A stretch of DNA of 64,000 bases, taken from positions 38,440,001-38,504,000 of the forward strand of contig OZ024743.1 in NCBI GenBank assembly GCA_964016885.1. The letters run 5' to 3'. Below the pieces are notes generated by a model. That model ran no database searches, had not been told where the DNA came from, and was given only the letters and a program-made list of their open reading frames with translations. Position numbers and translations under genes: made by a program. This document shows, one piece after another, positions 3,805-60,554 of this stretch. The DNA is from Eledone cirrhosa (lineage: Eukaryota). The first letter of the stretch is position 1, and every line of letters begins with the position of its first letter.

Positions 3805-4137
3805 ATCATATATAATTCTGAACTCGATATATTTGATATATTTCACATAGTGTAAGATAAAGTTGATTAAGTTAGATATACACATATACTTGAGAAGAAT
3901 GTTTCATACATTCAAAACATAATCACAATCATTAGGTATTCAGTGATACATGAGATATAACTACATTTAAATTGAAGACATTTAGATAATCTGGAATGGC
4001 TATACATGTTATCACTCTTTTGATAGTAACTATGCTTTAATTTTATTGTAGGCCTTCTGGTGTTTACCTGAATAATGTCTGGCCTCGGGTGGTTAATTTT
4101 ATAAAGAATATTTACTAAGTACACTCCGCATGTATTA
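3805..4137. repeat. Left arm of a ~330-bp inverted repeat (partner 6819-7151)
   Basis: Highly similar to the reverse complement of 6819-7151, e.g. tttactaagtacactccgcatgtatta / taatacatgcggagtgtacttagtaaa. Confidence 0.9.
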
Positions 4138-4225: not shown

Positions 4226-4854
4226 AGTATGTATACGTACATACATATATGTATACAGACATACAGTAGTATGTATATATATATATAAACATTCATGCAG
4301 ACATACATATATGTACGTATGGATTCACCGAACATTTATTATAATGCTCGGTGTCTTTGTAAACAAACATACCCGTATTAAGCCGTAGTGTATAGTAACC
4401 ATCGTTGCTCGTTTGTTCAACACTGACAAAGTTGTTGTCGGTGCACCCGGGCGTTTAACCCACTCGATATGCAAATTGGGCTACACAGCTGTTAATATGC
4501 ATGAGGAAAGTATATACTTTCAGACGTTCAATCATCTGGCAGGAAAGTATACGTTGCTGACGATAGCTAATAAACTTGAAACTAGTACAGCGTTCCGTTG
4601 TCAGTGTTGAACAAACGAGCAACGATGGTTGCTAGACATTACGGCTTAATACGGGATGTTTGTTTACAAACACCCCGAGCATTATAATAAATGTTCGATG
4701 AATCCATACGTACATGTATATATGTATGCGTGTATGTATATATGTATACATACTACTGTACGTCTGTATACATATATGTATGTACGTATACATACTTATA
4801 TTTAAGTAACAGCCGTACTAAGAGTGGGAAATGAAATTTCGTTTCATTTTTTCC

Positions 4855-4860
<6 letters not shown>
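4222..4860 (+). mobile_element. Non-coding hammerhead-bearing fold-back element, family H1, copy 1
   Basis: Inverted arms at ~4222-4428 and ~4598-4800, with an HHR at 4551-4593. Homologous to 12580-13300 and 39355-39836; flanked by (TA)n. Confidence 0.85.
4551..4593 (+). ncRNA. Type I minimal hammerhead motif (family H1)
   Basis: acgttg CTGACGA tagctaataaactt GAAA ctag TA cagcgt; stem I acgttg/cagcgt (one G-U pair), palindromic stem III ACTAGT, GUA cleavage triplet. Stem II is decayed in this copy. Confidence 0.75.
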
Positions 4861-6263: not shown

Positions 6264-6769
6264 ATACATTATGAAGAGAGAAGAAACATTTAGATATAAT
6301 TAGTAATAAAATGTATCATACCTAAACTGTTCCTAAATTCCTCGACTACGTAGTTTCGTGGCATAAACAAAAACAATATATCAAAGATATAGAGTCCTTG
6401 CGAGGTCTGCCGACTTATCAAGAGGATACCTCATTTTACTAGTCTCAAGAACGCGTCTACACGACGTGAGAAAGAATCCCAAAAGGCGGAGGGGGAGATA
6501 GTCACGCGATATAACGGTCGAGAAACAGAGCTAAGCCTCTTATAACCACGAAGAAAATACCACGGAGGCGGAGGGGGTATTCATATCGAGGCCATATCTG
6601 TTTCTCGACCGTTATATCGCGTGACTATCTCCCCCTCCGCCTTTTGGGATTCTTTCTCACGTCGTGTAGACGCGTTCTTGAGACTAGTAAAATGAGGTAT
6701 CCTCTTGATAAGTTTAGGTATGATACATTTTATTACTAATTATATCTAAATGTTTCTTCTCTCTTCATA

Positions 6770-6775
<6 letters not shown>
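6264..6775. mobile_element. Fold-back element (family H2) with an extended hammerhead in the left arm
   Basis: 6264-6529 is the reverse complement of 6597-6775 apart from an ~85-bp segment missing from the right arm; that segment holds most of the HHR. Confidence 0.85.
6339..6426 (-). ncRNA. Type I hammerhead, U3-A8 core variant with a long loop II
   Basis: Minus strand: tcctc TTGATAA gtcggca [44 nt] tgccac GAAA ctacgtag TC gagga; perfect 5-bp stem I, palindromic stem III, GUC triplet. Confidence 0.75.
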
Positions 6776-6818: not shown

Positions 6819-7151
6819 TAATACATGCGGAGTGTACTTAGTAAATATTCTTTATAAAATTAACCACCCGAGGCCAGATATTATTCAGGTAAACACCAGA
6901 AGGCCTACAATACAATTAAAGCATAGTTAATATCAAAAGAGTGATAACATGTATAGCCATTCCAGATTATCTAAATGTCTTCAATTTAGATGTAGTTATA
7001 TCTCATGTATTACTGAATACCTAATGATTGTGATTTGGTTTTGAATATATGAGAAAGTCTTCTCAAGTATATGTGTATATCTAACTAATTCAACATTATC
7101 TTACAATATGTGAAATATATCAAATATATGGTGTTCAGAATTATATATGAT
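6819..7151. repeat. Right arm of the inverted repeat (partner 3805-4137)
   Basis: Reverse complement of 3805-4137. Confidence 0.9.
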
Positions 7152-7663: not shown

Positions 7664-8600
7664 ATACTTTGGGAGGGTCATGTTGCCAATAAGAAACACA
7701 CGCACCAGTAGTTTCACTTCAATTTATTATATATTTATAAATTTATAAATTTACAAATTTACAAACCTATACATTTCTGGTTGGTTGGTTGGTTCCACAA
7801 CCAGATAGTTGTTTATATATATAGTCATAGTCCTTTCGTCACACACTCTGTGACCTCTTCAGTGACTGGGGATTCCTTTCTTCGTTTCTGTGCCTTTCCT
7901 TTCTTCTATCCTAGGCCATTTTGTTTCTGTGTGTGTGTTGTGTGCTCAGTTTGCGCATGCGCCACATCCGGGTGTCTGTGTGTGTTTGTGTTCATTTTTC
8001 TATTTTTCTATTTATATTTTTCTATTTGTTTATTTATTTATTTATTTATTGTTGGTTGGTTGTTTGTTCTATGTGTGTGTGTGTTTTCATTTTGTCCTGT
8101 GTGTGTTTTCATTTTGTGTGTGTTTTCAATTGTAAGTTGTTTGTTCTATGTGTGTGTGTGTTTTCATTTTGTCCTTAATTGTAAGTTGTGATGTTGCTGT
8201 TCCACTCATATTTTCTATTTAATTTTGGTTTTAATTCTTTTATGCTTACTGCCTCTGTAATTTGCCTAAACATTGCGTCTTTTCTGTGTGTGGATTCTAT
8301 TTTTATTTCTATGCTCTCTAATCTACCCCTGTGTTCTATCTTAGCATGTTGGTAGAGCACAGATGATTCTTTATTATCTTGGAGGTCTCGCCAGTGTTCA
8401 TTTATTCGTTCCCCTATACTACGAGCTGTCTCACCTATGTACACTATATTTTTGTTTCTAGATTGTCCTTCAGTACATCTTATGCTATACACTACATTTC
8501 TAGTTTTACAGTTAATATGGGGGCTTATTTTACAGGTTATACATTTCTTATCTATACATGAGGGTCTTTGGAACGGGTATGTCTTGCTAATAAGTGTTTT
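7658..8600 (-). mobile_element. Penelope-like element 3' fragment (GIY-YIG) plus pLTR
   Basis: ORF 8175-8492 reads YSIRCTEGQ...VYIGETARSIGERINEH...RQITEAVSIKELKPKLNRKYEWN. The pLTR terminus tattgttatactttgggagggtcatg abuts (TA)n. Confidence 0.92.
7823..7867 (-). ncRNA. Type I minimal hammerhead in PLE pLTR (well formed)
   Basis: Minus strand: agtca CTGAAGA g gtcaca-gagtg-tgtgac GAAA ggac TA tgact; perfect stems I and II. Confidence 0.85.
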
Positions 8601-9199
8601 CCGTAAAAAGACTTATATAGAGGTAACTGGGAAAATAATGCAGTAAATTAGTAATTAGGATGAGATTAGCTAAAATAAGAACAATTAAAATACAGGGAAT
8701 TACACTTAGGTAAAGTACCCACCGAAACCAGTGTGTTTGTTAAAAGTTTGGTCAACATAGCGAGGACGGCCTGAGCAAATGGGCGTACTTTGAGCATAGA
8801 CAACATCTGAGGCTGCACTTGGCGACTAGGTTGATTTCAGATTTGTGGTGTTCCTAAACTACTCCTTGATGATACCTCACTTCTATTGGGGAATTCTTTT
8901 ATATTTAATGGTAATTATCACTTCTTTTCATTATTTTTACATGTGTTTATGGAATGTCCAGTCCTCGTTCTTTTGTATTCTCTTTTGTGGTTCGGTTCTT
9001 GTATCCAGTGAAGAAAGAATTATTGTTAAATAATATCAACATATTGATAAATTCATATCTATAATTCACTATGTGATGCTCTTCAATTTAAACAGACGTT
9101 TGCCAATAATGTTGGCAAAACTTGAGATATTTATCTCTTTCTAAATTGTATGAAGTTAGCAAAGTTATAAAGTAATGTGTTTTAAGATATTCATATTAA

Positions 9200-12579: not shown

Positions 12580-12705
12580 TGAATGGAAAAAAAATGAAAT
12601 TTCATTTCTCACTCTTAGTACGGGTGATACTTAAATATAAGTATGTATACGTGCATACATATATGTATACAGACGTAAAGTAGTATGCATATACAAACAT
12701 ACATG

Positions 12706-12802
<97 letters not shown>

Positions 12803-13300
12803 ACGTATGGGTTTACCGAACAGTTATAATGTTCGGTTTGTTTGTAAACAAACAGCCCGAATTAAGCCGTACAGTATTCGGCAACCATCGTTGCCCTTTT
12901 GTTCAACACTGACAAAGGAGCGAAGAACAAGTTTCTAACTTATTAGCTGTCATCAGCACCGTATACCTTCCTGTCAATCGGTTGAACGTTTGAAAGTATA
13001 TACTTTCCTTATGCATATTAACGGGTGAGCCGAATTACGCCGTACAGTGCTCGGCAACCATCCTCGCCCTTTTGTTCAACACTGACACAGGAACGATGTA
13101 CTAGTTTCAAGCTTATTATCTATCGTCAGCGTCGTATACCTTTCTGTTGGGCTGTTTGTTTACGAACAAACCGAACATTGTAATAAATATCAATGTTCGG
13201 TAAACCCAAACGTACATATATATATATGTGTGCATGTATGTATATATATACACACTACTGTACGCCTCTACACTTATATGTATGTACATATACATACTTA
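12580..13300 (-). mobile_element. Family H1 element, copy 2, with two tandem hammerheads and an inverted terminal piece
   Basis: Reverse-complement homology to 4430-4860. HHRs at 12920-12962 and 13093-13135; inverted segment at ~13150-13300. Confidence 0.85.
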
Positions 13301-13519: not shown

Positions 13520-14700
13520 AAAAATTGAACGGGAACAAAACAGAGAGGCAGTACGAACAAAGTTTTATTAGTTTCACGCTCTTGAGAGTGGGGTGGTGAT
13601 GGGGAACGACGTTTCGGGCATAAGCCCTTCTTCAGGTGAAAAGTGTGTGGGAAGAGAGTTCCAAGGGTGTGTAGGGGAGTGGTGGAGAGACATATAGAAA
13701 AAAGGGGGTGAGAGGAAACGGTACAAATGAAATTAAAAATAAAGGCATGATCAAAATAAAATTAAAAATACACATGGAGTAAAACAGGTGGTGGATGCGT
13801 GTGGGGTGTGTGGGGGCGTGGAGTGGGGAGAGGGAGACGGGGTGTCCGAGCGGGGAGGGCTGAAGGTGGTGTGTGTGTGTAGCTGTACGTGTGTGTGTGT
13901 GTGTGTGTATGTGAAAGTAAGAGTTGGTAGAATGGGGTTGCATGTTCAGGAAGAGGTGTGTGTGGGGTGGGGTGTGTGTGCGTGTGTGGATAGAGTGGTG
14001 GGGGGAGAGGATTCCGGAGGCTGAATGTGTAAATATGTGGTGGCACGCACGTGTATGTGTGGTGTTTTTGCGTGTTGTGTATGTAGGTGGCATGTGGGGA
14101 AAAAAATGTTTTTGGGTGTATGTCCGATGATGAGTCGTTAAGGTAATTCCGTAGACGGTGTGGTGGAATGCTGAGTAATATCCTTGGGATGTGGTGGATT
14201 CTCGGGATCAAGGTTCATATATGTGTAATCCGTGAAGAGATTGGTCAGAAGAGGGGAGATGTGGGGTGCGTGAGCAACAGGAAGTGGTCAGAGGGTCAAG
14301 GCAGGAGGAGGGTTGGTGTCTGTGTCTGCGGGAGGTGGTGAGAGAGGCATAGCAGCAGTAGGGTAGAATGGTAAGTGAAGAAAGTCGCTGTGTCAGTGTG
14401 TGCGGAGGTGCGGTGGACAGGGGAGAGGATGGGTAGGTGTGAAAGTTGGAGTGAGAAGGGGTGTGTGTGTATTAGTAGAGGTGTTAGTGGGATGTGTGTG
14501 TGTTTGAGAAAGGGTGTGGGGGCCGATGGAGGGGGTGTAGTGTACTGGTGTGTGTGTGCGTGTTTGGATGAGTGTGTGTGTGGTGAAGGGAGTGTTAGTT
14601 GTTGTTAGTATAATGGACGTGGAGAAAGGGTTGAATGCGGGTGTGGGTGGGGGTCAGTGGTGGTAGGGCGTGTAGAGTGGGTGGTGTAAGTGGGTGTGTG
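13520..14700 (-). mobile_element. Probable PLE pLTR / CA-rich remnant with hammerhead core at 13603-13640
   Basis: Minus strand: ttcac CTGAAGA a gggc-ttat-gccc GAAAC GTC, then aataaa downstream; typical of PLE pLTR minimal HHRs. No recognisable RT. Confidence 0.55.
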
Positions 14701-28822: not shown

Positions 28823-28962
28823 ATTAGAAAGTGAGGTTTTTTTTACAAAATGAAAAATAACCGAGGTGTCCTACACGAGTGGAAGTATAAAGAAAAAGAG
28901 ATGAAATCGAAAATGCAACTGAAGTCTTATTTTAAAAAAAATATATATATATTTATTTGGTT

Positions 28963-29000
28963 CCTTTACCGGTTTCGCAGTTCTTCTGCTTTTCAAAAGG
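28963..29000 (-). ncRNA. Type I minimal hammerhead, U3-A8 variant
   Basis: Minus strand: cctt TTGAAAA gcag-aagaa-ctgc GAAA ccgg TA aagg. Confidence 0.8.
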
Positions 29001-29070
29001 TGAGTTGAGATGGAGCGTCTGTGGTTTTTCTCACATGTGAGAACAACCACAGACCCTCCATCTCAACTCA

Positions 29071-29108
29071 CCTTTTGAAAAGCAGAAGAACTGCGAAACC
29101 GGTAAAGG
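29071..29108 (+). ncRNA. Type I minimal hammerhead, U3-A8 variant
   Basis: cctt TTGAAAA gcag-aagaa-ctgc GAAA ccgg TA aagg; perfect stems I and II, palindromic stem III ACCGGT, GUA triplet. Confidence 0.8.
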
Positions 29109-29179
29109 AACCAAATAAATATATATATTTTTTAAAAAAATAAGACTTCAGTTGCATTTTCGATTTCATCTCTTTTTTT

Positions 29180-29259
<80 letters not shown>

Positions 29260-33640: not shown

Positions 33641-36600
33641 CTTGGTTGTCCATCATAAACGATAATGTCATCTTCTTTATTTTAGTTCCCGTCTGCCATG
33701 GGCACCAAGTTGGCTGTGGAGGCCGATCCTTGACTTGCAGGTCCGTGAACAGTAGGAGCAAGTGAAGAGACCGGATTCGCTTGGGGCAGCTGTTGGTGGC
33801 TTTCTCCTACTTTCACGGGCCTCAGTGACCTCTGTCCGTCTCTTATCTTGAAAAGAGTCTTTGGCACCTCTGGTAAGGGCTCGCCACTCAGTCCTGTCCT
33901 GAGCATGAGACTCGAGTTGCTTTGGCGCGATTCCAGTGTTGTTGATACTGAACTTCACGCAGTTTTTGAACCTCTTGAGAGGCCTGCCCCGCTTTCGTTT
34001 CCCAGAACAGAGTTCTCCATACATCAGTTGCTTCGGAAGCCTGTGATCGTCCATCCAGATGACAAGTCCCACCCATCAAAGTTGGCTCTTCAGTATCATA
34101 GCTTCGACACTGGTTGTCTCAGCCATGTCAAGAACTTCGATGTTGAAGACCTTGTCCTGCCATTTGATGTTCATGATTGACCGCAGGCTGCGCATGTGGA
34201 ACCGTTCTAACTGCTTCAGGTGCCTTCTGTACAGGATCCCTGTCTCACATCCGTAGAGGAGGCTGGTGAGAACAACGGCCCTGTACACATTGAGCTTGGT
34301 GGACTGCCTGATGTGCTGGTTCAGGACGCATGTCCTCAGGCGGCCGAGGGCTTGACTGAACTTGCAGATTCTGGCGTCTATCTCCTTGTCAAGACTTCCA
34401 TCGCTGCTGATGACACTGCCGAGGTACTTGAAGTCGTCCACCATCTTTAGCTGGGTGCTTCCGATGGAGATGGAAGGAGGGTGGGAGATGGAGGCAGGTG
34501 CAGGCTGGAACAGGACCTCAGTTTTGCCAAGGATAATTGAGACCGAAGTGGCAGGAGGCCTCCGCGAACTTGTTGACGATGAGTTGGAGGTCAGACTCCA
34601 TGTGGGACATGAGGGCACAGACGTCAGCAAAAACTGCCTCCAGGACGATTTCTTGGCTGTCAGGCGCCGCAGGTCAAACAGCGAGCCGTCCAGTTTGTAT
34701 CGCAGAAACACTCCATGCTCGAGGTCCCTGACGGCATGATTGAGCACGCTGGTGAAGAAGGGGTTGAAGAGGACGGGAGCAGCACGCCTCCTTGCTTGAC
34801 GCCGTTGGTGATTCGGAACGGCTCGGTTGCCTCTCCGCCAGAGCGCACCTGCCCGGTCACGTCCTCATGGAGCCGTATCAGGTTCACAAACTTTGTCGGG
34901 CATCCAAACTTCGACAGGATCGACCAGATGGCTTCCTTGTTGGAAGTGTCGAATGCCTTCGTGAATTCTATGAAGACGGCAAAGAGGTCCATGTTCTGCT
35001 CGACACACCACTCCTGCACCTGGCGTACAAGACGATCATGTCTATCGTGCTGCGGTGTGGGCGGAACCCACACTGGGTCTCAGGAATGTTGTTATCCGAG
35101 ATGTTGGCAATGAGGGTGTTGAGCATGACCAGAGCCAGGACCTTCCCGGCGATGGATAGGAAAGAAATGCCCCGATAGTTGGGCACGGCTGAAGTCTTTG
35201 CGCACCTCTTCTTCCTCCCATATGCTGACGAGGAGGGTGTGGGAGGCCCCCAGGGTAGCTGGACCGGCCGATTTGAAGATCTCGGCAGGAATCCCGTCTT
35301 TCCAAGGGGCCTTTCCTGAGCTGGGCTGGTTGATTGCCTTCGTGACTTCATCCAACGTAGGTCGAGGCTGCCGACTACGGGCTTCTGTGGGACCTGGTCG
35401 AGGGCGGCAGGATCGACAGTGGAGGGCCTGTTGAGCAGGTTGTTGAAGTGCTCTTCCCAGCTCGAGTTGATGCTGCTCTTCTCCTTCAGCAGGATCGAGC
35501 CGTCAGCAGGAAGCAGCGGTGTGGTGACAGGCTTGGGGCGTCCGTAGACGCACCCGATGGCGCTGAAGAACGTCTTGGAGTTCTTTGTATCATCGTATCT
35601 CTCGATTTCTTCGGCCTTCTTTTCCCACCACTTGTCCTGCATTCTGCGTAGCGCTGCTTGGGTCTGCCTCTGGAGGTGCGTGAAGCGGTTGCGCTACGAG
35701 GTGGAGAAGCAATCATTCTGCCACTCAATGAAAGCCCTCCTCTTCTCGTCCAGGAGTTGACTGATGGGCTTATCTTTTTCATCAAACCAGTCCTGTTGGA
35801 CACTCTTCCTCGGCCCGATGGTTGCCTTGGCTGACTATGTCACCAGCGAACTGAACTGGTCCGACTGTTGAGTTGGGGGTCCGGTCAGTAGTCCAAGGGC
35901 AGTCAGCGGGCCGTCCAGATGCTCCGCGAACGCATCACGATGCTCTGGCTGCTTGATCGTGCGTCGTCGAAAGCTGGCTTACAGTATTTCGGAGTCTTGC
36001 GATGCGTCGGGGTGATGTGCAGTGACAGGATGGTCCTGACAAGGTGATGGTCAGTCCAAAACTCTGCACTACGCATGGACCTGGTGATTCCGACCTCACG
36101 AATGTCGCTCTTGCGGCATATGCCGAAGTCAATCAGATGCCACTCTTTGCATCTGGGGTGCATCCATGTTGTTTTCAACTTGTCTGCCTGCGGAACAGTG
36201 TGCTGGTGATGGTGAGGTCGTTCTCGGCGCAGAAACTCAACAGTATGAAGCCGTTAGAGTTCACCTTCCCTGTGCCGTGAGTTCCCAGCACGCCTCTCCA
36301 GTTGCTGCTGTCAGACCCGATACTTGCGTTGAAGTCCCCCAGAAGGATGGGTTTATCGCTTTGGGGGTGGGGTGGGGGGGTACGACCTTAACGAGTGTGT
36401 TGTGTTCCCCGTAGAAAGCGTCCTTTGATGCATCGCTGCTGGTGAGAGTGGGGGCCTACGCGCTGATGACTGTGACATACCGACATGGGTCGAGGGGGAG
36501 GCGGAGCTTCATCAGCCGCTCACTCACCACAGGTGTTGGGATGTCTGGTAGCTGCTTGCAGATTGAAGTCCTGATGGCCAGCCCTACCCAGTGGATTCTG

Positions 36601-37600
36601 TCCCTCGTCCTTTGCATTGCCCTTCCAGAAGGTGTAGCCTCCTTTCAGTTCTGGACCTGGTCCTTCCTCGGCAAGTCAAGTTTCGCTGAGGGCGATCCGG
36701 TAGCGAGCTAATTCCCTTATGAGGGCAATTTTTCTCTCTGGCGTCAATGTTTCCCTATCCATGTGGGTGCGCACATTCCATGCGCCAAGAATCAAGTTCT
36801 TATTTCTGTGATGTTGGTTTCGACCGCTTGCAAGGGAAAAATCGCCAGCCACGGTAGACTGGCCGGCTTTGCGTGGGACGAGCAATTGGTTAGGGCTTAT
36901 TTTATCACCCCTCCTCTCGTGCGAGGGTTAGCAGTGCTCCCCTGAAAAGGGCTGCTCTGTCGCTCGGTGGAATGCCTGTTCTTCTCTGTCATCCCAGGGT
37001 CAGAAGGAGAACGACTTGCTCATCCGGGCTGCCCACGTGTGGGTTTGAGACTGGCAAATCCCAGAGGTTACCTCCGCCTCTCGCCCATTGCTGCAGGGCT
37101 TTGGGAGTGCACACTAAAGAAGAAACTTGTGCAGGAAAGGTTTATAGTGGGCGGGCCAGTGCAGACTGACGGGCCCACTCACTCGGCGGTTGAAGCCAGA
37201 ATCCGGTGGTACGGAGAACCGTCACGACCAGGGACTTCCTTGGCTGCAGTGGATGGCCACAACCTCTGTAGTGCCTTGCCGTGCCCTAGTGCTCCACACC
37301 GCTTGCTGACGCCGCCTTCGTGTTTGTTGGGACGATCTTGTCCTCCTCCACCCACTCCGCCGTGTTCCGTCTTCGCATGCAGGGGAAGGCATCCCCTATC
37401 TAACTCACCGGGGGGTTTCAGACCCATCCGGCTAACCTCAACCTGGTTTGGCCCGCCAGCCAAGGCGGTTTACCAGGGTGTGGCCGCTGTCGCATGCTAC
37501 AGCTTCTTGGGGCCACAGGTGAGAGCTGAGTGTCAGGTGGGAACCATTGCAGGACGAGCTGTCCTGAAAAGGGCATGGCTAGCCTCCCCCCTTACATAGG
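33640..37600 (-). mobile_element. Near full-length RTE-clade LINE (APE + RT + C-terminal C2H2-like), frameshifted
   Basis: APE motifs: LILGAWNVRT, ELARYRIALSET, TTWMHPRCKEWHLID, WTDHHLV. RT motifs: NYRGISFLSIAGKVLA, PETQCGFRPHRSTIDM, FTKAFD, NGVKQG, FKYLGS, LLYGCET. C-terminus: RLPKQLMYGEL...GRPLKRFK, CSYCSRTCKSRIGLHSQ. About 0.7 kb of 5' UTR. Confidence 0.96.
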
Positions 37601-39354: not shown

Positions 39355-39355
<1 letters not shown>

Positions 39356-39833
39356 TAAGTATGTACACGTACATACGTATATGTATACACACGTATGTAT
39401 ATATATATATATATACATACATTTTTGCCATTTATCGTTTTCGGTACGCCCGGCCGACTAAATCACTCGATATGCAAATTAGGCTGCTCAGCCGTTAATA
39501 TGCATAAGGAAAGTATATACTTTCAAACGTTCAATCATCTGACAGTAAGGTATATGGTGCTGATGACAGCTAATAAGCTAGAAACTAGTTCTTCGTTCCT
39601 TTGTCAGTCTTGAACAAAATGGCAACGATGGTTGCCGACAATGTACGGCTAATATTTCGAGCATTTACAAACAAACCGAGCATTATAATAAATGTTCGGT
39701 AAAACCCTACTTACATATATATATATATATGTGTGCATGTATGAATGCATATACATACTACTGTACGTATACATACTTATATTTAAGTATCAGCCGAACT
39801 AAGAGTGAGAAATGAAATTTCATTTTTACCATT

Positions 39834-44322: not shown

Positions 44323-44593
44323 CGATGAATTAGTTTTGCGAGGTTTTTTATATGAAATCGTGTGTCGAAACAGATATTGTTATATTTGGGGAGGGTCATA
44401 TTTGCGTAATATTGCCAGAATTAATAACAGAACACACTCACTGTTTGGTTGGTTTTCGCTTCTCGCTGTCTTTTATATATATATATCTGCGATCTAACTT
44501 ACTCGGTCCTCAATGTTGCCATTGACTGACCGGCGGTCAAAAATAATACTGATACAATATAGACACAAACACATATATATAGTTTACATAATT

Positions 44594-44636
44594 TACATAA
44601 ATCTTTCGTTGCACATCTGCAACATCGTCAGTGGTG
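44594..44636 (-). ncRNA. Type I hammerhead in PLE pLTR (other copies at 47792-47834 and 48321-48364)
   Basis: Minus strand: cacca CTGACGA t gttgca-gatg-tgcaac GAAA gatt TA tg; core and stem II identical in all three copies. Confidence 0.75.
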
Positions 44637-44896
44637 TTATATTCATTGTTCCTCCTGTTGTGTTGTATGTCTACGCCATTTTTTTTTTTTGTTCAGTCTG
44701 TCTATATATTTATTTATTTATTTGCTTGTTTGTTTATCTTATTTTATTTTGTCTTCTTTGCGCATGCGTTTGCGTGTGTGTATAGTGTGATGTGTGACTA
44801 GTGTGTATAGTGTTGTGTCTGCTGGGTGACTAGTGTGTGTTTATGTGCTTGTGTATGTATTTATTTATCTTATTTTATTTAATTTTATTTACTTAT

Positions 44897-46348
44897 TTAT
44901 ACTTCTCTTAGGTCAGTGTTGTTTGTTTGGGTGTTGTTGTTGTTCCACTCATTCTTTCTGTTTAGCTTTGGTCTTCTAATTTCTATTTCACTGGCCTCTC
45001 TGATTTGCCTATCTGCTGGGTCATTCCTATGTTTAGATATTATTCTAATTTCTATGTTGTCTATGTTACCGTCATGTTGTTGTCTAGCATGTTCGTATAG
45101 TACTGACCCGTTTTTTCGTCCTTTTAGTTCCCCCCAGTGTTGGTCTATCCTTTCACCTATGCTACGAGCTGTCTCACCTATGTATGTTGTTGTCATGTTT
45201 CTGCAAGTACCCTCTGTACATCTTATGCTATAGACTACGTTTCTAGTGTTACAGTTTATCCGGGGGTTCACCTTACAAATGATACATTTCCTATTGGTAC
45301 AGTGGGTTTTCTTAAAAGGGTAGGTTTTGCTGATCAGGGATTTTATGGTGGTTCCTGGCTTTTCTACCACCTTTATTTTTAAGTGGGTTTTTCTCAGGGC
45401 CTTTCTACACTGGTTAGCTAATTTCCCTCCAGGGGTGGCGTCCACAAACATGACACTCTGATATCTCTGGTTGTCGTACCATGATGTGGCCTTCTCTATC
45501 TTATGTCTAGTCCTATCTAAGCTATTCCATGATTTGCTCCTGTATAGTGGGCAAATTCCTTTCATGTCCAGTTCTATGAGGGTCTTATACTTTTCCATGG
45601 CTCCTTCGTATACTCTGACTCTGTCTCTTTGGTTGTAGCCAGAGAACTGCATGCGGTTGATGAAGTGTTGGATGTGTCCTTCCATTTCTGTTGGGTCGCA
45701 CATGCTGGACACATTCTTCATCACTCGTACCAAATCTGCGATCAGAATATTAAACTTAGCACTACTGGACATTGCTGAGTTTTTGAGTATCAGGTATTTG
45801 GAGGCCATGGGTTTAGCATAGTGTGAGTGGAGAATTTGGGCTCTCTCGTCTATAGTGTTAATCCAGAGTTCTGTGTCTAATACAGGTAGTCTATTGTTAG
45901 GGTGTTTGGAAGGGAAGTCTATAGTTACAGTTATACTCTGGTGTATGGAATTAGCTATCTGCTGGATGCTTTCCATCGTGCTACGTTCTAAATCAAACTT
46001 GTTAGTGCTCTCTAGTGGGGGTGTTCTTATAACTATATTGATATCGTCTACATAACGAGAGTACATGATGAGGTCTATGGAGCTTTCATTAAGGAGATCT
46101 TTAAGTCTCCTTTCCCACCATACCATGAAAAGGTTGGCAACATCACCAGCTATGCTGACGCCGATGGCTGCTCCCTCATTTTGGGTGTAGATTTTCTCAT
46201 TGAACTTAAATATGTGGCCCTTTAGGGTAGTTTTGATACTAGCCCCTATTGCATGTGCGACCATTTTTCTTACCTGATCAGTGTTTTGGGGGGTCCGTAT
46301 AGCTTTGGTCCACCCAATCCACCTTCCTATGGGAGTCTTTTTAGCCAT
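44897..46348 (-). CDS. Penelope-like RT (C-terminal part) - thumb - Cys linker - GIY-YIG endonuclease, 483-aa open segment
   Basis: Uninterrupted ORF with RYVDD, SGY, CTNRKCIIC...NC, VVYSIRC and YIGETAR...R...H...REA...PKLN. It continues upstream in another frame (46354-46569). Confidence 0.9.
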   Translation of the reverse strand: MAKKTPIGRWIGWTKAIRTPQNTDQVRKMVAHAIGASIKTTLKGHIFKFNEKIYTQNEGAAIGVSIAGDVANLFMVWWERRLKDLLNESSIDLIMYSRYVDDINIVIRTPPLESTNKFDLERSTMESIQQIANSIHQSITVTIDFPSKHPNNRLPVLDTELWINTIDERAQILHSHYAKPMASKYLILKNSAMSSSAKFNILIADLVRVMKNVSSMCDPTEMEGHIQHFINRMQFSGYNQRDRVRVYEGAMEKYKTLIELDMKGICPLYRSKSWNSLDRTRHKIEKATSWYDNQRYQSVMFVDATPGGKLANQCRKALRKTHLKIKVVEKPGTTIKSLISKTYPFKKTHCTNRKCIICKVNPRINCNTRNVVYSIRCTEGTCRNMTTTYIGETARSIGERIDQHWGELKGRKNGSVLYEHARQQHDGNIDNIEIRIISKHRNDPADRQIREASEIEIRRPKLNRKNEWNNNNTQTNNTDLREV

Positions 46349-47280
46349 TGAGGTTATGGTGGGGGTCTACCTCTTATAGGTCTACTAGGGCAGAAACATC
46401 TAAGGTCATGGCTGTCTAGGTAGTCAGTGTCGTAGGTAAGTCTAAGTAGGAGGCCCAGTTCGTCTGTGTCGACGTCGCAGAACTCCACCTCACACTCAAT
46501 GATCATCTCCACACATCTTTTCACAGCAAAATCAATGTTAATGGATGGGTACAGTGACACCACATCCATGCTGCCTATTATGCATAATATGCTAAGATTT
46601 TCATAATTATAAATTTATTATATTCTCATAAATTTTGTAGATGAATCATTTACATAAACTGCAACGTTGACTGCTTTGGAAAACGAAACTAAATGTTTCA
46701 AATAATCAGAATTAATCCGTCAACAGGAAAGACGAAATTTCGTAGAAAATGGATGTTGGAAGTTTAGAAAAAAATGTTGATATAAAAGTTTGTGATAAAG
46801 GTCCTGCGACCCGGTGCTACACCTAGCCGTTTTTGCCTGCGGCATTTAATATCTAGAGTATAAAAACGTGAACATAACAATCTCCAAGCTGTTTCAATAT
46901 CCTCTAGTTTGCTCAGGGAGTATTCTGAATACATGAGTGCATATACATCATTGTCAACAGCAAACGGATATAATATAATAATCAGAAATGTTTGAACAAT
47001 CATATTGGTTCAATTGATTAGAAAGCAATTCAACTAATTAATAATGTTGGCCTAAGAAATCATTAATGAGATCAAAATATTCCTGCGAGTTAATTAAATT
47101 AATATTTAAGTTAATCCAAATAATCATCGTGTTAGTTTAATTTATTAGTAGTGTTAATTAGTTGTGTTAGTTTAATAACTAAATCATGCTGGTTTAATCA
47201 ATTAGTCGCATTAGTTTAATCAATATTTCATGATATTTGAATTAATTAAACTTATCTTATTGGGTATATATATTTTTTTA

Positions 47281-47399
47281 AATATAGAAATGGCTTCTAC
47301 ATGACGAGAACTGTTTCATTCGAAGGAAATCATCAGGGCTTTCCTGATGATTTCCTTTGAATGAAACAGTTCTAGTCGTGTAGAAGCCATTTCTATATT
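47281..47399. repeat. ~120-bp palindrome with hammerhead cores on both strands (family H4)
   Basis: aatatagaaatggcttctac...aaatcatcagg gcttt cctgatgattt...gtagaagccatttctatatt; each arm reads CTGATGA t ttc-N4-gaa t GAAA cagttct.GTC. Confidence 0.8.
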
Positions 47400-47541
47400 A
47401 AATATTTATACTCTGCTATGTATTATGTACCTTACTGTGGTTACCCACGATTGAACCCGGGATACAGACTCTCACACACGCACACACACATAACGCACGC
47501 ACACACACCCACACAAGCACACACATATATATATATATATA

Positions 47542-50385
47542 TGAATTAGTTTTGCGAGGTTTTTGATATGAAATCGTGAGTCGAAAGAAATATTGTTATA
47601 TTTGGGGAGGGTCATAGTTGTGTAATAATATTGCCAGAATTAATAACAGAACACACTCACTGTTTGGTTGGTTTTCGCTTCTGTGTCTTCTATATCGGTT
47701 AATTTAATTTATTCGGTCCTCAATGTTGCCATTGACTGACCAACGGTCAAAAATACAGATACAATATAGACACAAACACATATATATAGTCTATCAAATA
47801 ATTTCGTTGCACATCTGCAACATCGTCAGTGGTGCTATTATGTTTCCTCCCGTTGCAATGTATGCTTACGCCATCTTTATTTAGTCTGTTTATTTATTTA
47901 TTTATTTGTTTATTTTTTAAATTTGTTTGTCTTCTCTGCGCATGCATTTGTGTGTGTGTATAGTGTTTTGTTTGATGTGTGTTCTTGTTTGGGTGACTGT
48001 GTATTGGTTAATATATTCTATCTTAGTTTACTAGTGTGTGTTTATATTTGTTTGTTGTTATTGTGCTTGTGTATGCATTTATTTATTGTTTATTTATCGT
48101 GTTTCGAAACAAATATTGTTATACTTGGGGAGGGTCATATTTGTGTAATATTGCCAGAATTAATACCAGCACACACTCACTGTTTGGTTGGTTTTAGCTT
48201 CTCGCTTCTGTGTCTTTTATATCGGTAATCTAACTTACTCGGTCCTCAATGTTGCCATTGACTGACCGACGGTCAAAAATAATACAGATACAATATAGAC
48301 ACAAACACATATATATAGTTTATCATAAATCTTTCGTTGCACATCTGCAACATCGTCAGTGGTGCTATATTTTCCTCCTGTTTTATTGTATGTCTACGCC
48401 ATTTTTTTTCAGTCTGTCTATATATTTATTTATTTATTTGCGTGTTTGTTTATTTTATTTTGTCTTCTTTGCGCATGCGTTTGCGTGTGTGTATAGTGTT
48501 TTGTTTGCTGTGTGATGGGTGACTAGTGTGTGTTTATGTGCTTGTTGTTATTGTGCTTGTGTATGTATTTATTTATTTATTTATTTATTTTATTTTATTT
48601 ACTTATTTATACTTCTCTTAGGTCAGTGTTGTTTGTTTGGGTGTTGTTATTCCATTCATTTTTTCTGTTTAGCCTTGGCATTCTAAGTTCTATTTCGCTG
48701 GCCTCTCTGATTTGCCTACCTGCTGGGTCTTTTCTATGTTTAGATATTATTCTAACTTCTATGTTGTCTATGTTACCGTTGTGTTGTTGTCGGGCATGTT
48801 TGTATAGTACTAAACCGTTTTTTCGTCCTTTTAGTTCCCCCAGTGTTGGTCTATCATTTCACCTATGCTACGAGCTGTCCCGCCTATGTATGTTGTTTTC
48901 ATGTTTCTGCAAGTACCCTCTGCACATCTTATGCTATAGAATACGTTATCCGGGGTTTACTCTACATATGATATATTTCCTATTAGTACAGTGGGTTTTC
49001 TTAAAAGGGTAGGTTTTGCTAATCAGGGATTTTATGGTGGTACCTGGCTTTTCTACCACCTTAATCTTTAAGTGGGTCTTTCTCAGGGCCTTTCTACACT
49101 GGTTAGATAATTTCCCTCCAGGGGTAGCGTCCACAAACATGACACTCTGGTATCTCTGGTCGTCGAAACATGAGGTGGCTTTCCCCATCTTATGTCTAGT
49201 CCTATCTAAGCTATTCTATGATTTGCTCCTGTATAATGGGCAACTTCCTTTCATGTCCAGTTCTATGAGGGTCTTATACTTCTCCGTGGCTCCTTCGTAT
49301 ACTCTGATTCTGTCTCTTAGGTTGTAGCCAGAGAACTGCATGCGGTTGATGAAGTGTTGGATGTGTCTTTCCATTTCTGTTGGGTCGCACATGCGGTAAA
49401 CGTTCTTCATCACATGTGCCAAGTCTGCGATCAGAATATTAAACTTAGCACTACTAGACATTGCTGAGTTTTTGAGTATCAGGTATTTGGAGGGCCATGG
49501 GTTTAGCATAGTGTGAGTGGAGAATTTGGGCTCTCTCGTCTATAGTGTTAATCCAGAGTTCCATGTCTAATACAGGTAGTATATTGTTAAGGTGTTTGGA
49601 AGGGTAGTCGATAGTTACAGTTATACTCTGGTGTATGGAAGTAGCTATCTGCTGGATGCTTTCCATTGTGCTACGTTCTAAATCAAACTTGTTAGTGCTC
49701 TAACTTGTGGGGATCTCCGTGTTACTATATTGATGTCGTCTACGTAACGAGAGTACATGATGAGGTCTATGGAGCTCTCATCAAGGAGATCTTTGAGTCT
49801 CCTTTCCCACCATACCACAAAAAGGTTGGCAACGTCACCAGCTATGCTGACGCCAATGTCTGCTCCATCATTTTGGGTGTAGATCTTCTCGTTGAACTTG
49901 AATATGTGGCCCTTTAGGGTAGTTTTGATACTAGCCCCTATTGCGTGTGCGACCATGTTTCTTACCTGGTCATTGTTTTGGGGGGTCCGTATAGCTTTGG
50001 TCCATGAATTCTATCTTCCCATGGGAGTCGTTTTTGCCATTGAGGTTATGGTGGGGGATCTACCTCTTATGTTCTACTTGGGCAGAAACGTCTAAGGACA
50101 TGGCTGTCTAGGTAGTCAGTGTCGTAGGTAAGTCTAAGTAGGAGGCCCAGTTCGTCTGTGTTGACGTCGCAGAACTCCACCTCACTCTCAATGATCATCT
50201 CCACACATTTTTTCACAGCAAAATCAATGTTAATGGATGGGTACAGTGATACCACATCCATACTGCCTATTATGCTGTTGAATAGGTTCCTGTTTTTGTT
50301 GCACACACTGATTCTCCTCAGGAGGTCCTCTGTACTGTCACATACATCTGGAGACATCTTGATTATGGGCGTATAACCATTGAGA
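47542..50385 (-). mobile_element. Penelope-like retroelement, copy 2 (multiple frameshifts) with two tandem pLTRs
   Basis: ORF fragments 50067-50423, 49678-49956, 49454-49666, 49216-49509 and 48946-49188 closely match copy 1. pLTRs at ~47542-48100 and ~48100-48610 each carry the HHR. Confidence 0.95.
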
Positions 50386-50668: not shown

Positions 50669-51372
50669 TGTATATGCATTTATATTCACACACACACACA
50701 CTCACACACACACACAAGCATTTCTAATGCTTATCAAAAATAATTTTGAGATAGAGCACTCGTGATGTTTGATATATATTCATTTATGTGTAGTGGTTCA
50801 CCATTGGTTAGAACTATGTATTCCGCTTAATACACCATGACGTAATAGTAGGAAAAGCACTCAACATTATGCAGCTCATCCATCGTTGATGTTGAATAGT
50901 GTGGTTGGTGCAGGAACGGAGCTATATATTAGTTTGGTTAATAGAACAGGAGGCCGGACCTGTGAAGTTCCTTTCACGTTTTTTGTTGTTGTTGTTGCAA
51001 AAACACTATATATATTTCAATGACCTGGTTAGGTACGATTCTGGTGACATCATAATGTTCGGATTGCATAATTAGTTGAAAATAAAGACATTATGTCAAA
51101 CACAATATAGAACAAATATTGATCCGGAGAGGGCCCACGTTTATTGTTTCCGCAAACAATCCCGAATTAAATATGTTTTCTATATTTTCTCTGTGTGTTT
51201 TGCCATAATTCCATTATGGATTAACTAATTATGCAATTCGCGCCTGATGATGTCACCAGGATCTCACTGAACCAGGCCATTGAAATATACCTAGCGATTT
51301 TACAACAATAATCGTTAAAGGAACATCACCAGGCCGGCCTCCTGTTATTTTTTCATATATATATATATAGTA

Positions 51373-51608
51373 ATGTAATAAACAACATAACATAATTATT
51401 TTATTTACCAGTCGTTTCTTGAAAGCAAACAAAATTGCTTTCATTCATCAGAATGAAAAAATCCTGGTGTCTTTATTGGCAGTGGATTTGAAAAACCACT
51501 GTAAATAAAGACACCAGGATTTTTTCATTCTGATGAATAAAAGCAATTTTGGTTGCTTTCAAGAAACGACTGGTAAATGAAATAATTATGTTATGTTGTT
51601 TATTACAT
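51373..51608. mobile_element. Fold-back element (family H5) with hammerheads on both strands
   Basis: Palindrome with ~110-bp arms around the loop atttgaaaaa; HHRs at 51400-51458 (-) and 51523-51582 (+). Confidence 0.88.
51523..51582 (+). ncRNA. Type I hammerhead, canonical core
   Basis: tttcatt CTGATGA ata aaagcaa-ttttgg-ttgcttt caa GAAA c-gactg-g TA aatgaaa; 7-bp stem I, long stem II, GUA triplet. Confidence 0.8.
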
Positions 51609-52707
51609 AACTAATGAGCTCTGTAACTTACAAAGAACACTCTTTTTTCCTGGACCTTTCCGACGGAATTACTTCATTCACATATATATATATATATGTT
51701 AACGAGATATCGTTGAAGGTAATCCAAATAGATGTTATCAGAATTCTGTATCGAGTGACGAAAGGTACAATACCTCCGACAAAATTCTAAAGTTCTTGTC
51801 TACCCGAATTTAACTCAGGTTGACCAGCCATTATGGTAGAAATCCATATACCACGTATTTGGCTCAAATCTTGAAACTCGTGCGAACTTCTTAACCAAGC
51901 AAATATGCATGTCTCATATTTACATCTACATATCGGACATATAGATACCTGTCAAGCTCTAAAAACTCAAAAGGAGAGAACCCCCAAATGGGGATATTTT
52001 AGATAACGAAAACTATACCCATTTTCACGAGAGGAAACACTTCAAACGCAAACCAAAGTAGGTGAAAGATCTCCTTGTCAGACGGGGATAGTTGAGAGGT
52101 CCGGATATACAACATTGTAGATCACAAATGACTTAGAAATATAAACCTTGGAATATTTCAAGTAATCTTTTAATTATTATTTCTAAATGATTTAATGTTG
52201 AAACTTGTGAATTCCCTACTTTATTTTTCTGCTTGTCTATTCATCCTTACTGTGCCACGTGATTAAAAAATAAAGGTGATGTCAGAAACAATTGCATCTA
52301 TTTTCAATTGCTTAAATATGTAGCCAGAAAAATCTATATATATATGAACGGAAAATTAAAGTTTTGGCTGTGGCTCTTACGGAAAGCATTACAGATTCTT
52401 GAATCTTAATTAACTGCTTCGCCCAGCGCATTAAGTTTGTCATTGCTGTTTTACGCATAGGATTTATGAAATAGAAGCCTGGTACATATATTGTTCCACG
52501 TTACATTATATTTTTAAAACTGAAGAAATATCTTTCGCCTGACAAAAAGGGTCTTTAATGTGAAAAAATATCATTAATTAATCAAACAATAAGTTAATGA
52601 ATATGCACAAACCTTAATAAGATACTTTCTTTCTTCTTTCCTCAACGAATATTAAACTGCAATAACTAAATTCAGATTCAAATTACCTTCATATCAACCT
52701 TATGTAT

Positions 52708-55082: not shown

Positions 55083-55293
55083 ATGTGAGAAAAACCACAG
55101 ACCCTCCATCTCAACTCACCTTTTGAAAAGCAGAAGAACTGCGAAACCGGTAAAGGAACCAAATAAATATATATCATTTAAAAAAAAATAAGACTCCAGT
55201 TGCATTTTCGATTTCATCTCTTTTTCTTTATACTTTCACTCGTGTAGGACACCTCGGTTATTTTTCATTTTGTAAAAAAAACCTCACTTTCTA

Positions 55294-58205: not shown

Positions 58206-58361
58206 GAAGTGCTTACACAACAGTTAGTTCACCATACCGAGAACAATTGTTTCACCTCAGCGGATCCTCAGCTAGTAATTGACGTCCATTATGATCTGAG
58301 GATCCGCTAAGATGAAACAATTGTTCTCGGTATGGTGAACTAACTGTTGTATAACCACTTC
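58206..58361. repeat. Fold-back with degenerate hammerhead cores on both arms (family H6)
   Basis: Arms of ~65 bp around a ~24-nt spacer; each reads CTGAGGA tccgct.ag.t GAAA caattg TTC. Confidence 0.7.
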
Positions 58362-58431
58362 TACCTAACTGGTCCAATGGAATAAGTGCTCTACCACTAA
58401 TGTCTATTACTTTTCAGTGTTCTACCTCTAA

Positions 58432-59126: not shown

Positions 59127-60089
59127 ATATTGTTATGCTTTGGGAGGGTCATGTTGCCAATAAGAAACACACGCACCAGCTGTTTTCACTTCAATGTATT
59201 ATAAATTAAAATTATAAATTTAGGAATTTATAAATTTACGGTTGGTTGGTTGGTTCCACAACCAGACGAGACGATTGTTCATATATTGTCAAAGTGCTTT
59301 CGTCACATATTATGTGACTTCTTTAGTGACTGGGGATTCTTTTCTTTGCTTTCGTGCCTCTCTTTTTTTCTGTCCTACGCCATCTTGTTTTTGCTGTGTG
59401 CTTACTTTGCGCATGTGTTTCATCCGGATGTATGTGTGTGTTTATATTTGTTTATTTATTTATTTATTTACATGTTACTGGTTAATTGTTTGTTCTATGT
59501 GTGTGTGTTTTTCATTTTGTCCTTAATCGTAAGTTGTGATGTTGCTATTCTATTCATGTTTTCTATTTAATTTTGTTTGGAGTTCATTTATGTTTATTGC
59601 CTTTAAATACGCAATGTTTAGACAAATCACAGAGGCTTTAAACATAAATAAACTCCAACCAAAATTAAATAGAAAACATGAATGGAAGAGCAACATCAAA
59701 CCTTAAAATTAAGGATAACATTAAAACACACACACACACATAGAACAAACAACCAACCAGTAACATGTAAATAAACAAATAAATAAATAAATATAAACAC
59801 ACACAGACACACGGATCTAACACATGCGCAAACTAAGCACACAACAAAAACAAGATGGCGTGGGACCGAACAAAGGAGAGGCGCAAAAGCAAAGAAAAGA
59901 ATCCCCAGTCACTGAAGAGGTCACAGAATGTGTGACCAAAGAACTTTGACAATATAAGAACAATCGTCTCGTCTGGTTGTGGAACCAACCAACCGGACAT
60001 TTATGAATTCCTAAATTTATGAATTGAAGTGAAAGCATCCAGTGCGTGTTTCTTATTGGCAACATGACCCTCCTAAAGCATAACAATAT
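59127..60089. mobile_element. Inverted pair of PLE pLTRs (7658 family), each with a mutated hammerhead (59287-59331 minus, 59907-59950 plus)
   Basis: The two halves are diverged reverse complements, joined through the last GIY-YIG codons (AMFRQITEALNINKLQPKLNRKHEW). The cores read CTAAAGA...GAAA and CTGAAGA...CAAA. Confidence 0.9.
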
Positions 60090-60554
60090 CGGTTTCAACA
60101 CACGTTTTCAGATAAAGAATGTTGCTAAACAAATTCAGAAACGATATATATTTCTTTTTTTTTTCTTTTTTATATAGCATAGCATAGATGACCGTATTTT
60201 ATACAAATGTGAACACTTAGCACACATGCAGATTAGATACATAAAAAAAAAAACACAACGTTGAAGTTTCGTTTATATGTTCTTATTTGTTATCGAATGG
60301 CTACGTACTCTTCCCAGATGACTGGCACAAGGTTACCTGAGGAAACAATGAACCGGGCTCCAGCATCGATCTCCTCATTAGACTTGTTGATTCAGCAAAA
60401 AACACAGTATGTTTAATCACCAACTCTGACTTGCAAATAGATGCTGGAGACCGTTCCATAGCTTCCATAATTGACCTTCAGCTAATCCCCCCTAAAACAT
60501 CCCTAATCTGTCGATAATCAATAAATACATGTACATTAAACCTCATCGCTTTTT

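Follow-up and report, generated by a model that had tools for sequence, protein, structure and literature searches.

A hairpin with a hammerhead motif on each strand in Eledone cirrhosa is probably a decayed insertion made by Penelope-like element machinery

The analysis of a 64,000-nucleotide stretch of Eledone cirrhosa DNA (the window) indicates that positions 51368-51680 are probably a decayed insertion made by the machinery of a Penelope-like element (PLE), with two short hammerhead-bearing terminal-repeat copies placed head to head in a TA microsatellite. The hairpin with a hammerhead motif on each strand is a real structure, likely of ordinary origin. The PLE reverse transcriptase-endonuclease would have cut both strands of a TA run, and reverse transcription would have begun at two RNA sites, giving a short end (51613) and a tailed end (about 51670-51680). 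On reaching a short palindrome with which the repeat begins on its 5' side, the copies would have stopped or folded back, and there they would have been joined. The unit has since drifted, and its arms now differ at 8 of 123 positions. The role of the hammerhead in the parent family would be that of a weak RNA-processing motif, assisted by dimerization or by a protein.

A near-perfect fold-back of 246 nt, 93.5% self-complementary by self-alignment, was found at 51368-51613. Its two 123-nt arms differ at 8 positions (6.5%, without compensation), 2 of them inside the central loop, and both hammerhead motifs read outward from the centre at 51490.5. The 236-bp fold-back described at 51373..51608 in an earlier annotation made from the sequence alone (the first-pass annotation) is thus real and near-perfect, with a calculated minimum free energy of -163.7 kcal/mol and a z of -29 (0 of 200 shuffles as good), whereas its extent had to be corrected, as both arms are longer by 5 nt at their outer ends and the insertion probably extends as far as about 51680. 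The same annotation had reported no coding sequence, and no coding frame was found in the unit by an ORF check of the locus. The lack of similarity to other families that it also reported holds for the sequence, no homolog of the arm being found elsewhere in the 64-kb window by masked blastn; it does not hold for the build, which is shared by three more head-to-head hammerhead fold-backs in the window. The features of the unit are collected in Table 1.

Table 1. Features of the unit at 51368-51680 and of the runs that border it (positions of the window).
Feature	Position	Strand	Details
Left (TA)n run, likely insertion target	51354..51369	.	Identical to the 16 nt at 51681-51696
Left arm, an inverted copy whose short 3' end abuts (TA)n	51368..51490	-	Self-alignment and arm comparison; mirror position 51613
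Type I hammerhead motif, minus	51399..51458	-	Core 51451-51445, GUA 51408-51406, helix II 9 bp
Fold-back centre, imperfect palindrome	51484..51497	.	Becomes perfect with the majority letters of the reads at 51490 and 51495
Right arm	51491..51613	+	Self-alignment and arm comparison
AATAAA	51504..51509	+	Mirror at 51472-51477, minus strand
Type I hammerhead motif, plus	51523..51582	+	Core 51530-51536, GAAA 51563-51566, GUA 51573-51575
One-sided 3' extension, likely PLE tail, about 67 nt	51614..51680	+	Repeat family, not host flank
Right (TA)n run	51681..51697	.	Sequence inspection

Both arms carry CTGATGA (at +51530 and -51451), GAAA and GUA as first annotated, and the 9-bp helix II of the minus copy and the 7-bp helix I of the plus copy (51523-51529 with 51576-51582) were confirmed. 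In hammerhead numbering, the catalytic boxes C3-U-G-A-N-G8-A9 and G12-A-A-A15.1 are intact in both arms, where the U16.1-H17 cleavage site is also present (GUA, an A15.1-U16.1 pair and an open helix I). The canonical core claimed for both strands stands as far as these boxes are concerned, but not for the helices around them: the G10.1-C11.1 pair that closes helix II is absent, both arms having A.A at 10.1/11.1 (A51537.A51562 in the plus copy), and helix III is reduced in each copy to 2 bp, A-U and C-G, with a 5-nt loop. In addition, helix II of the plus copy has 8/9 bp owing to an A.C mismatch, and helix I of the minus copy has 6/7 bp (3 bp, a C.A mismatch and 3 bp), one of its strands being predicted to pair over the core in a competing hairpin. 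The unpaired base after A9 followed by G10.1-C11.1, a feature of PLE minimal hammerheads, is absent both at the locus and in the family reads described below. Because the G10.1-C11.1 pair fails, the locus has been filed neither as a canonical hammerhead nor as a textbook minimal one. The core pattern, which was composed after the finding had been seen, gave 4 matches in the 64-kb window against 0.04 expected and a largest value of 1 in 100 shuffles. No Rfam family reached its gathering score anywhere in the window, and no Rfam hammerhead model matched a single arm at E<=10, where 2 chance rows were all that appeared; the PLE-linked control hammerhead at 7862 was likewise missed.

Six public sequencing runs from one organism share at most 0.14 of the sampled words with the window, and they may therefore come from a relative rather than from the window's species. 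Four of the six, contigs X1 and X2 (one sample) and RAD reads X4 and X5, were compared with 51480-51678 at 80% likeness or more, which yielded 2107 and 2064 contigs and 3422 and 2849 reads, figures that are not copy numbers. Most matches were less than 95% alike, with 7/3422 and 4/2849 reads reaching 99% or more to the locus itself. The family of the arm is large, divergent and conserved, so that the absence of a conserved family, named in the first-pass annotation as what would count against its reading, is not what was found. In X4, most reads have G at 51539 (1146/1162), T or C at 51537 (1083/1162, with T in 782 and C in 301), where the locus has A, and C at 51568 (801/923), where both arms of the locus have G. 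With C at 51568, helix III and loop 3 become near-palindromic (8/9 pairs in the family majority), and it follows from these three positions that the family has an intact helix II and a near-palindromic helix III, its 10.1/11.1 closure being mostly U-A or C.A (1x1) instead of the A.A of the locus. Among the matches listed, the loose ends before 51554 and 51571 revealed a sister subfamily whose core reads CTGACGA and whose helix II strands, 10 nt each, have another sequence but are again complementary (agreement 0.6-0.86, not on one molecule); this supports selection on the hammerhead structure in the family. Pattern scans of metagenomes gave no match and then a single one (L001), which covered 23/25 nt only, lacked the upstream core and was attributed to chance.

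Analysis of the boundaries, which had been suggested in the first-pass annotation, gave a tail, flanking TA runs beginning at 51354 and 51681, and two 3' ends in the family, one short (51613) and one tailed (about 51670-51680). Sixteen identical nt stand on each side of the unit (51354-51369 and 51681-51696), a possible target-site duplication that is inseparable from plain microsatellite. Among the matches listed, (TA)n stands behind 51613 in the loose ends of 12 and 16 contigs, and 5/16 contig pieces bridge 51613 by at least 31 nt on each side with 13-20 differences; 456/586 and 395/498 molecules end at 51670, the letters behind being of low agreement. The bridging pieces and the ends at 51670 therefore indicate that 51614-51680 is element sequence and that the unit is 51368-51680, between two TA runs. 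None of the 16 contig pieces listed connects the CUGAUGA core to the tail, which tells against the PLE reading, and in many reads the match stops at 51584-51591, with 409 and 378 ends falling on 51587 among the matches listed; the 3' part is therefore shared with sister elements, to which the bridging pieces may belong. The tail of about 67 nt has the same length as in the ORF-linked PLE units of the window.

These ends and the arrangement of the arms were compared with the published descriptions of PLE insertions. An inverted 5'-truncated copy, a one-sided tail and (TA)n targets are described for PLE insertions (PMC8557442), and in Adineta vaga a palindrome is found at the 5' end of the 193-218-bp pLTRs and at head-to-head junctions, one of two inverted pLTRs carrying a tail, with self-priming proposed as the origin and unproven (PMC3846280). 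The AT-rich/(TA)n target, the one-sided 3' tail and the inverted copy adjacent at the 5' end, head to head with a junction palindrome, were all found at the locus. The locus shows those structural features of an EN+ PLE insertion unit that the sequence allows to be checked. It resembles the Adineta vaga EN+ PLE units (PMC3846280, with the scheme of PMC8557442) in the head-to-head inverted terminal repeats, the junction palindrome, the extension on one arm and the microsatellite target, and its right arm and tail, which together measure about 194 nt when counted from 51487, agree with the length of the pLTRs in that species (PMC3846280). In contrast to those units, it has no ORF; no ORF with a reverse transcriptase (RT) and GIY-YIG was linked to its family in the window, and its tail exceeds the 30-40 bp given in both papers (PMC8557442, PMC3846280), two points that speak against the PLE reading.

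Similarities were also found with Poseidon PAc of Anolis carolinensis, which cuts and extends both strands at AT-rich sites and in which two RT start sites define the tail (PMC11167929). The hammerhead near the 3' end of the repeat and the AT-rich targets are common to both, and the two ends of the locus family would match the two RT start sites of PAc (PMC11167929). The ORF of PAc starts at helix II (PMC11167929), whereas the locus has an ATG there in the minus arm only; a similar ORF start was considered for the family and rejected, as most family reads have T or C at the ATG and the plus-arm frame closes at 51612-51617. With respect to the minimal hammerheads of PMC4209133, where dual motifs on opposite strands 100-700 bp apart were noted in 2014, the locus has in common the intact boxes, the long helix II, the very short helix III (near-palindromic in the family majority), the large variable family and the closeness of opposite-strand pairs. 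It differs from those motifs by its 1x1 closure, without the bulged base and G10.1-C11.1, by its helix I of 7 bp instead of 4-5, and by the 79 nt between its cores, just below the published range (PMC4209133).

There is some chance, well short of even, that the parent was a non-autonomous, ORF-less mini-element of about 190 nt (AATAAA, hammerhead and tail, retrozyme- or SINE-like) that borrowed PLE enzymes. Only the parent differs from the explanation preferred here; the mechanism overlaps, and the confidences placed in the two are not exclusive. Family similarity is lost just before AATAAA (51504) in 442 and 333 loose ends among the matches listed, and it drops at 51504 and about 51487 with upstream letters of low agreement (0.47-0.48) rather than one ORF end, as a mini-element would have it; a head-to-tail joint of 51614 to 51504, present in one contig from X1 and one from X2, which come from a single sample, and the report that animal retrozymes are non-autonomous PLE derivatives (bioRxiv 2026.07.22.740005) point in the same direction. 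However, the same pattern would be left by solo pLTRs that carry a palindrome at their 5' end (PMC3846280). The locus is like the non-LTR retrozymes in being ORF-less, low in GC and PLE-related with a type I hammerhead (PMC7229834; bioRxiv 2026.07.22.740005), and in axolotl HHR_Amex2, too, helix II is closed by something other than a G-C pair (PMC7229834), but retrozymes are defined by head-to-tail repeats (PMC7229834), and no tandem array stands at the locus. Unlike the head-to-tail arrays that give rise to circular RNAs in retrozymes, the locus is head to head and cannot yield a monomer between two cleavage sites on one strand.

At the centre, T is found at 51490 in 134/146 and at 51495 in 297/304 reads of X4, with which 51484-51497 becomes a perfect palindrome, and the self-complementary TTTTAAAA also stands in register in the loose-end consensus before 51504. 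Sequencing depth drops there from 316 (51494-51500) to 24 (51480-51486) in X4 and from 225 to 22 in X5; about nine tenths of the reads near the centre therefore do not continue into the mirror arm, and most family copies lack the mirror arm of 51368-51613. Short-read libraries may under-sample hairpins. Strand-switch joints were found at 51487, 51491, 51504, 51507/51511 and 51554/51587, in 21 reads in all; the number is small, and chimeras formed in the libraries could account for them.

A palindromic element (MITE-like, or a hairpin retroelement) that moves as one two-armed unit would account for the equal arms and for a further strand-switch joint whose centre, 51491, coincides with that of the locus (5 reads, 2 starts). 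It would also fit the fact that both arms depart together from the family majority at 51537, 51547, 51568 and 51590. The weaker hammerhead letters common to both arms point to one source copy or to a species difference. Such an element is improbable in view of the large fraction of reads that do not enter the mirror arm, the joints at four other places, the asymmetric end with its tail and the absence of a terminal-repeat/target-duplication pattern at the unit.

The locus had been regarded in the first-pass annotation as the best candidate for an active canonical-core ribozyme among the non-coding fold-backs, an opinion that is not sustained by the missing G10.1-C11.1 pair, by a helix III palindrome that differs from the family majority or by the predicted folding. 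The active fold would be reached by a share of 2e-3 for 51515-51590 (plus) and 4e-7 for its mirror (minus), and by 5e-6 and 2e-8 for single arms, while a penalty of 75-76 kcal/mol against the active fold is predicted for the full unit; all these are nearest-neighbour values that leave out tertiary contacts, and no hammerhead of known activity served to calibrate them. Since each motif points away from the centre, transcription across the unit produces the antisense arm before the motif itself, and for five plus-strand prefixes of increasing length the core is predicted to pair with the mirror arm at a probability of at least 0.996. The hairpin is thus predicted to bury both cores, blocking the ribozymes rather than permitting cutting. 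Single metazoan PLE minimal hammerheads gave no detectable cleavage and dimers gave low cleavage (PMC4209133), and the PAc hammerhead cleaved only with the PLE protein and was dispensable for insertion (PMC11167929), which also weighs against the candidate.

An active ribozyme pair used by the host, with self-cleaving transcripts that start close to the AT-rich centre and proceed away from it on both strands, is quite unlikely. The intact C3-A9, G12-A14 and GUA of both arms and the 7-bp helix I of the plus copy would favour this, and weak cleavage is shown by the monomer of an axolotl hammerhead whose helix II is closed by U.U (PMC7229834), so that a closure other than G-C need not be fatal. 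A literature search gave no account of the effect of A.A at 10.1/11.1. Against these points stand the A.A closure itself, a helix III self-dimer predicted at -4.0 kcal/mol versus -8.2 for the family majority motif, lesions that differ between the arms as they do in drift, copies on opposite strands that cannot dimerise on one transcript, and the very low predicted single-arm shares given above. With helix III weakened, an extra lesion in each arm and a hairpin that buries the cores, ribozyme activity at the locus is unlikely, and the hammerhead of 51368-51680 is probably inactive.

That the hairpin is retained as a source of double-stranded RNA, for a microRNA or endogenous siRNAs, is very unlikely: the long near-perfect stem and some sub-threshold Rfam miRNA matches at E<=10 would agree with it, but all 31 of these Rfam matches lie far below the gathering score and reflect the hairpin alone, the arms differ without compensation, and the same build recurs in unrelated families. 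Incidental siRNA production from the hairpin is possible, with no function. An assembly artefact (a fold-back chimera) can practically be set aside, for although no contig or read spans the locus at high identity among the matches listed, the arms have 8 differences, at 4 of which the majority of the reads agrees with the left arm, and the unit has structured ends (TA runs and tail).

The surroundings are consistent with the insertion by PLE machinery that is preferred here. The window is AT-rich, microsatellite-rich animal DNA with several PLE fragments, and RT/GIY-YIG protein matches were found at 785-1220, 8178-8612, 44963-46584 and 48652-50372, the best protein match for the PLE ORFs being from Octopus vulgaris (65%, among 92 matches). 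In Pfam, the RT match was below the cut-off and two GIY-YIG matches were above it. In the ORF at 44897 the nuclease is preceded by a CX4CxxC linker, the motif given for Neptune/Nematis-type PLEs (PMC8557442), and RT and GIY-YIG ORFs with this linker lie 1-7 kb from the fold-back. With a relaxed pattern, 16 hammerhead cores were found in the window (mean of 1.26 and largest of 6 in 100 shuffles), and they include 3 opposite-strand pairs less than 200 nt apart, all head to head and none tail to tail, with no such pair in 100 shuffles; a fourth head-to-head pair, with a U3-A8 core, stands at 28996/29075. An internal control is provided by 59127-60089, where two arms set head to head each encode the C-terminus of the GIY-YIG of the 8175-8612 family and continue into the pLTR of that family; the pair at 59127-60143 is made of 5'-truncated PLE copies with a hammerhead at +59912 and an extension on the right arm only. 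The pLTR copies of the window end at the short end or about 55-60 nt further. A one-sided gap of 61-70 nt to the next simple repeat was measured in 6/8 fold-backs (4226, 28886, 47264, 51368, 58206 and 59127) and not in the other two (50945-51346 and 6267-6772), and the gap stretch is homologous to other window copies for the fold-backs at 4226, 28886 and 59127. The unpaired base after A9 and G10.1-C11.1 are present in the ORF-linked hammerheads at 1479, 7862 and 44631.

The single locus matters little, as it adds another decayed PLE-type insertion to a kind whose build was published between 2013 and 2021, and it serves as a warning that invertebrate palindromes with a hammerhead on each strand are usually PLE by-products. 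If found to be general genome-wide, tails of 60-70 nt in several unrelated families would be of interest to PLE specialists, and centres on a short palindrome encoded by the family would bear on how PLEs make head-to-head inversions, an unsettled question. It is proposed, rather doubtfully, that octopus-like genomes hold a group of PLE passengers, about 190 nt long and lacking an ORF, whose hammerheads form a subtype of their own (no G10.1-C11.1, 1x1 helix II closure, palindromic helix III), whose tails measure 60-70 nt and whose 5' end contains a palindrome from which hairpin insertions start. If such a group is real, its many independent centres would tell snap-back from two-primer models of PLE insertion. 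No description of an octopus-like family of this build was found in mostly open-access literature, Repbase being outside the search; the 1x1 closure may already be visible in the supplementary hammerhead alignments that accompany PMC4209133 and PMC8557442. For the giant squid, 235 Rfam hammerhead loci have been reported (PMC6962438).

Other repeats of the window were also recorded. The fold-back at 28825-29183 carries hammerheads at -28996 and +29075 with a U3-A8 covariant core, G10.1-C11.1 and a perfect palindromic CCGG helix III; this pair is a cleaner PLE-type motif than 51368-51613, in spite of the U3-A8 core. A single-armed copy with a tail, beginning at the centre of that fold-back, lies at 55083-55293. 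Two ORF-less head-to-head hammerhead fold-backs, 47264-47470 and 58206-58431, have their centres at distances of 6.5 and 12.5 nt from the core; both carry U.U at 10.1/11.1 and have about 60-70 nt on the right before a simple repeat. The former lies between the copies of a partial tandem of a broken PLE at 44327-50372 (RT, CX4CxxC linker and GIY-YIG), which includes three hammerhead-bearing pLTR copies (motifs at -44631, -47829 and -48359). The family at 4226-4860, 12582-13298 and 39355-39827 (hammerheads at +4557, -12956, -13129 and +39560) shows partial tandem and inverted arrangements and a 1x1 helix II closure, with no ORF seen. An older fold-back, 50945-51346, with 65-68% arm identity and a degenerate hammerhead-like motif at +51244, adjoins the locus on its left through a common TA run. 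A nested GC-richer fold-back at 6267-6772, beside (TA)n, has no hammerhead core by the patterns used, and a single hammerhead-like core with a short helix II and a CGTCG loop region, without a link to the window repeats, was found at 13635 (minus). The GC-rich region 33677-37600, with broken RT-containing ORFs on the minus strand, is likely a remnant of a LINE-type retrotransposon (Pfam RVT_1 below cut-off), and 3805-4137 and 6819-7151 form a 333-nt inverted pair with 95% identity, 2.7 kb apart.
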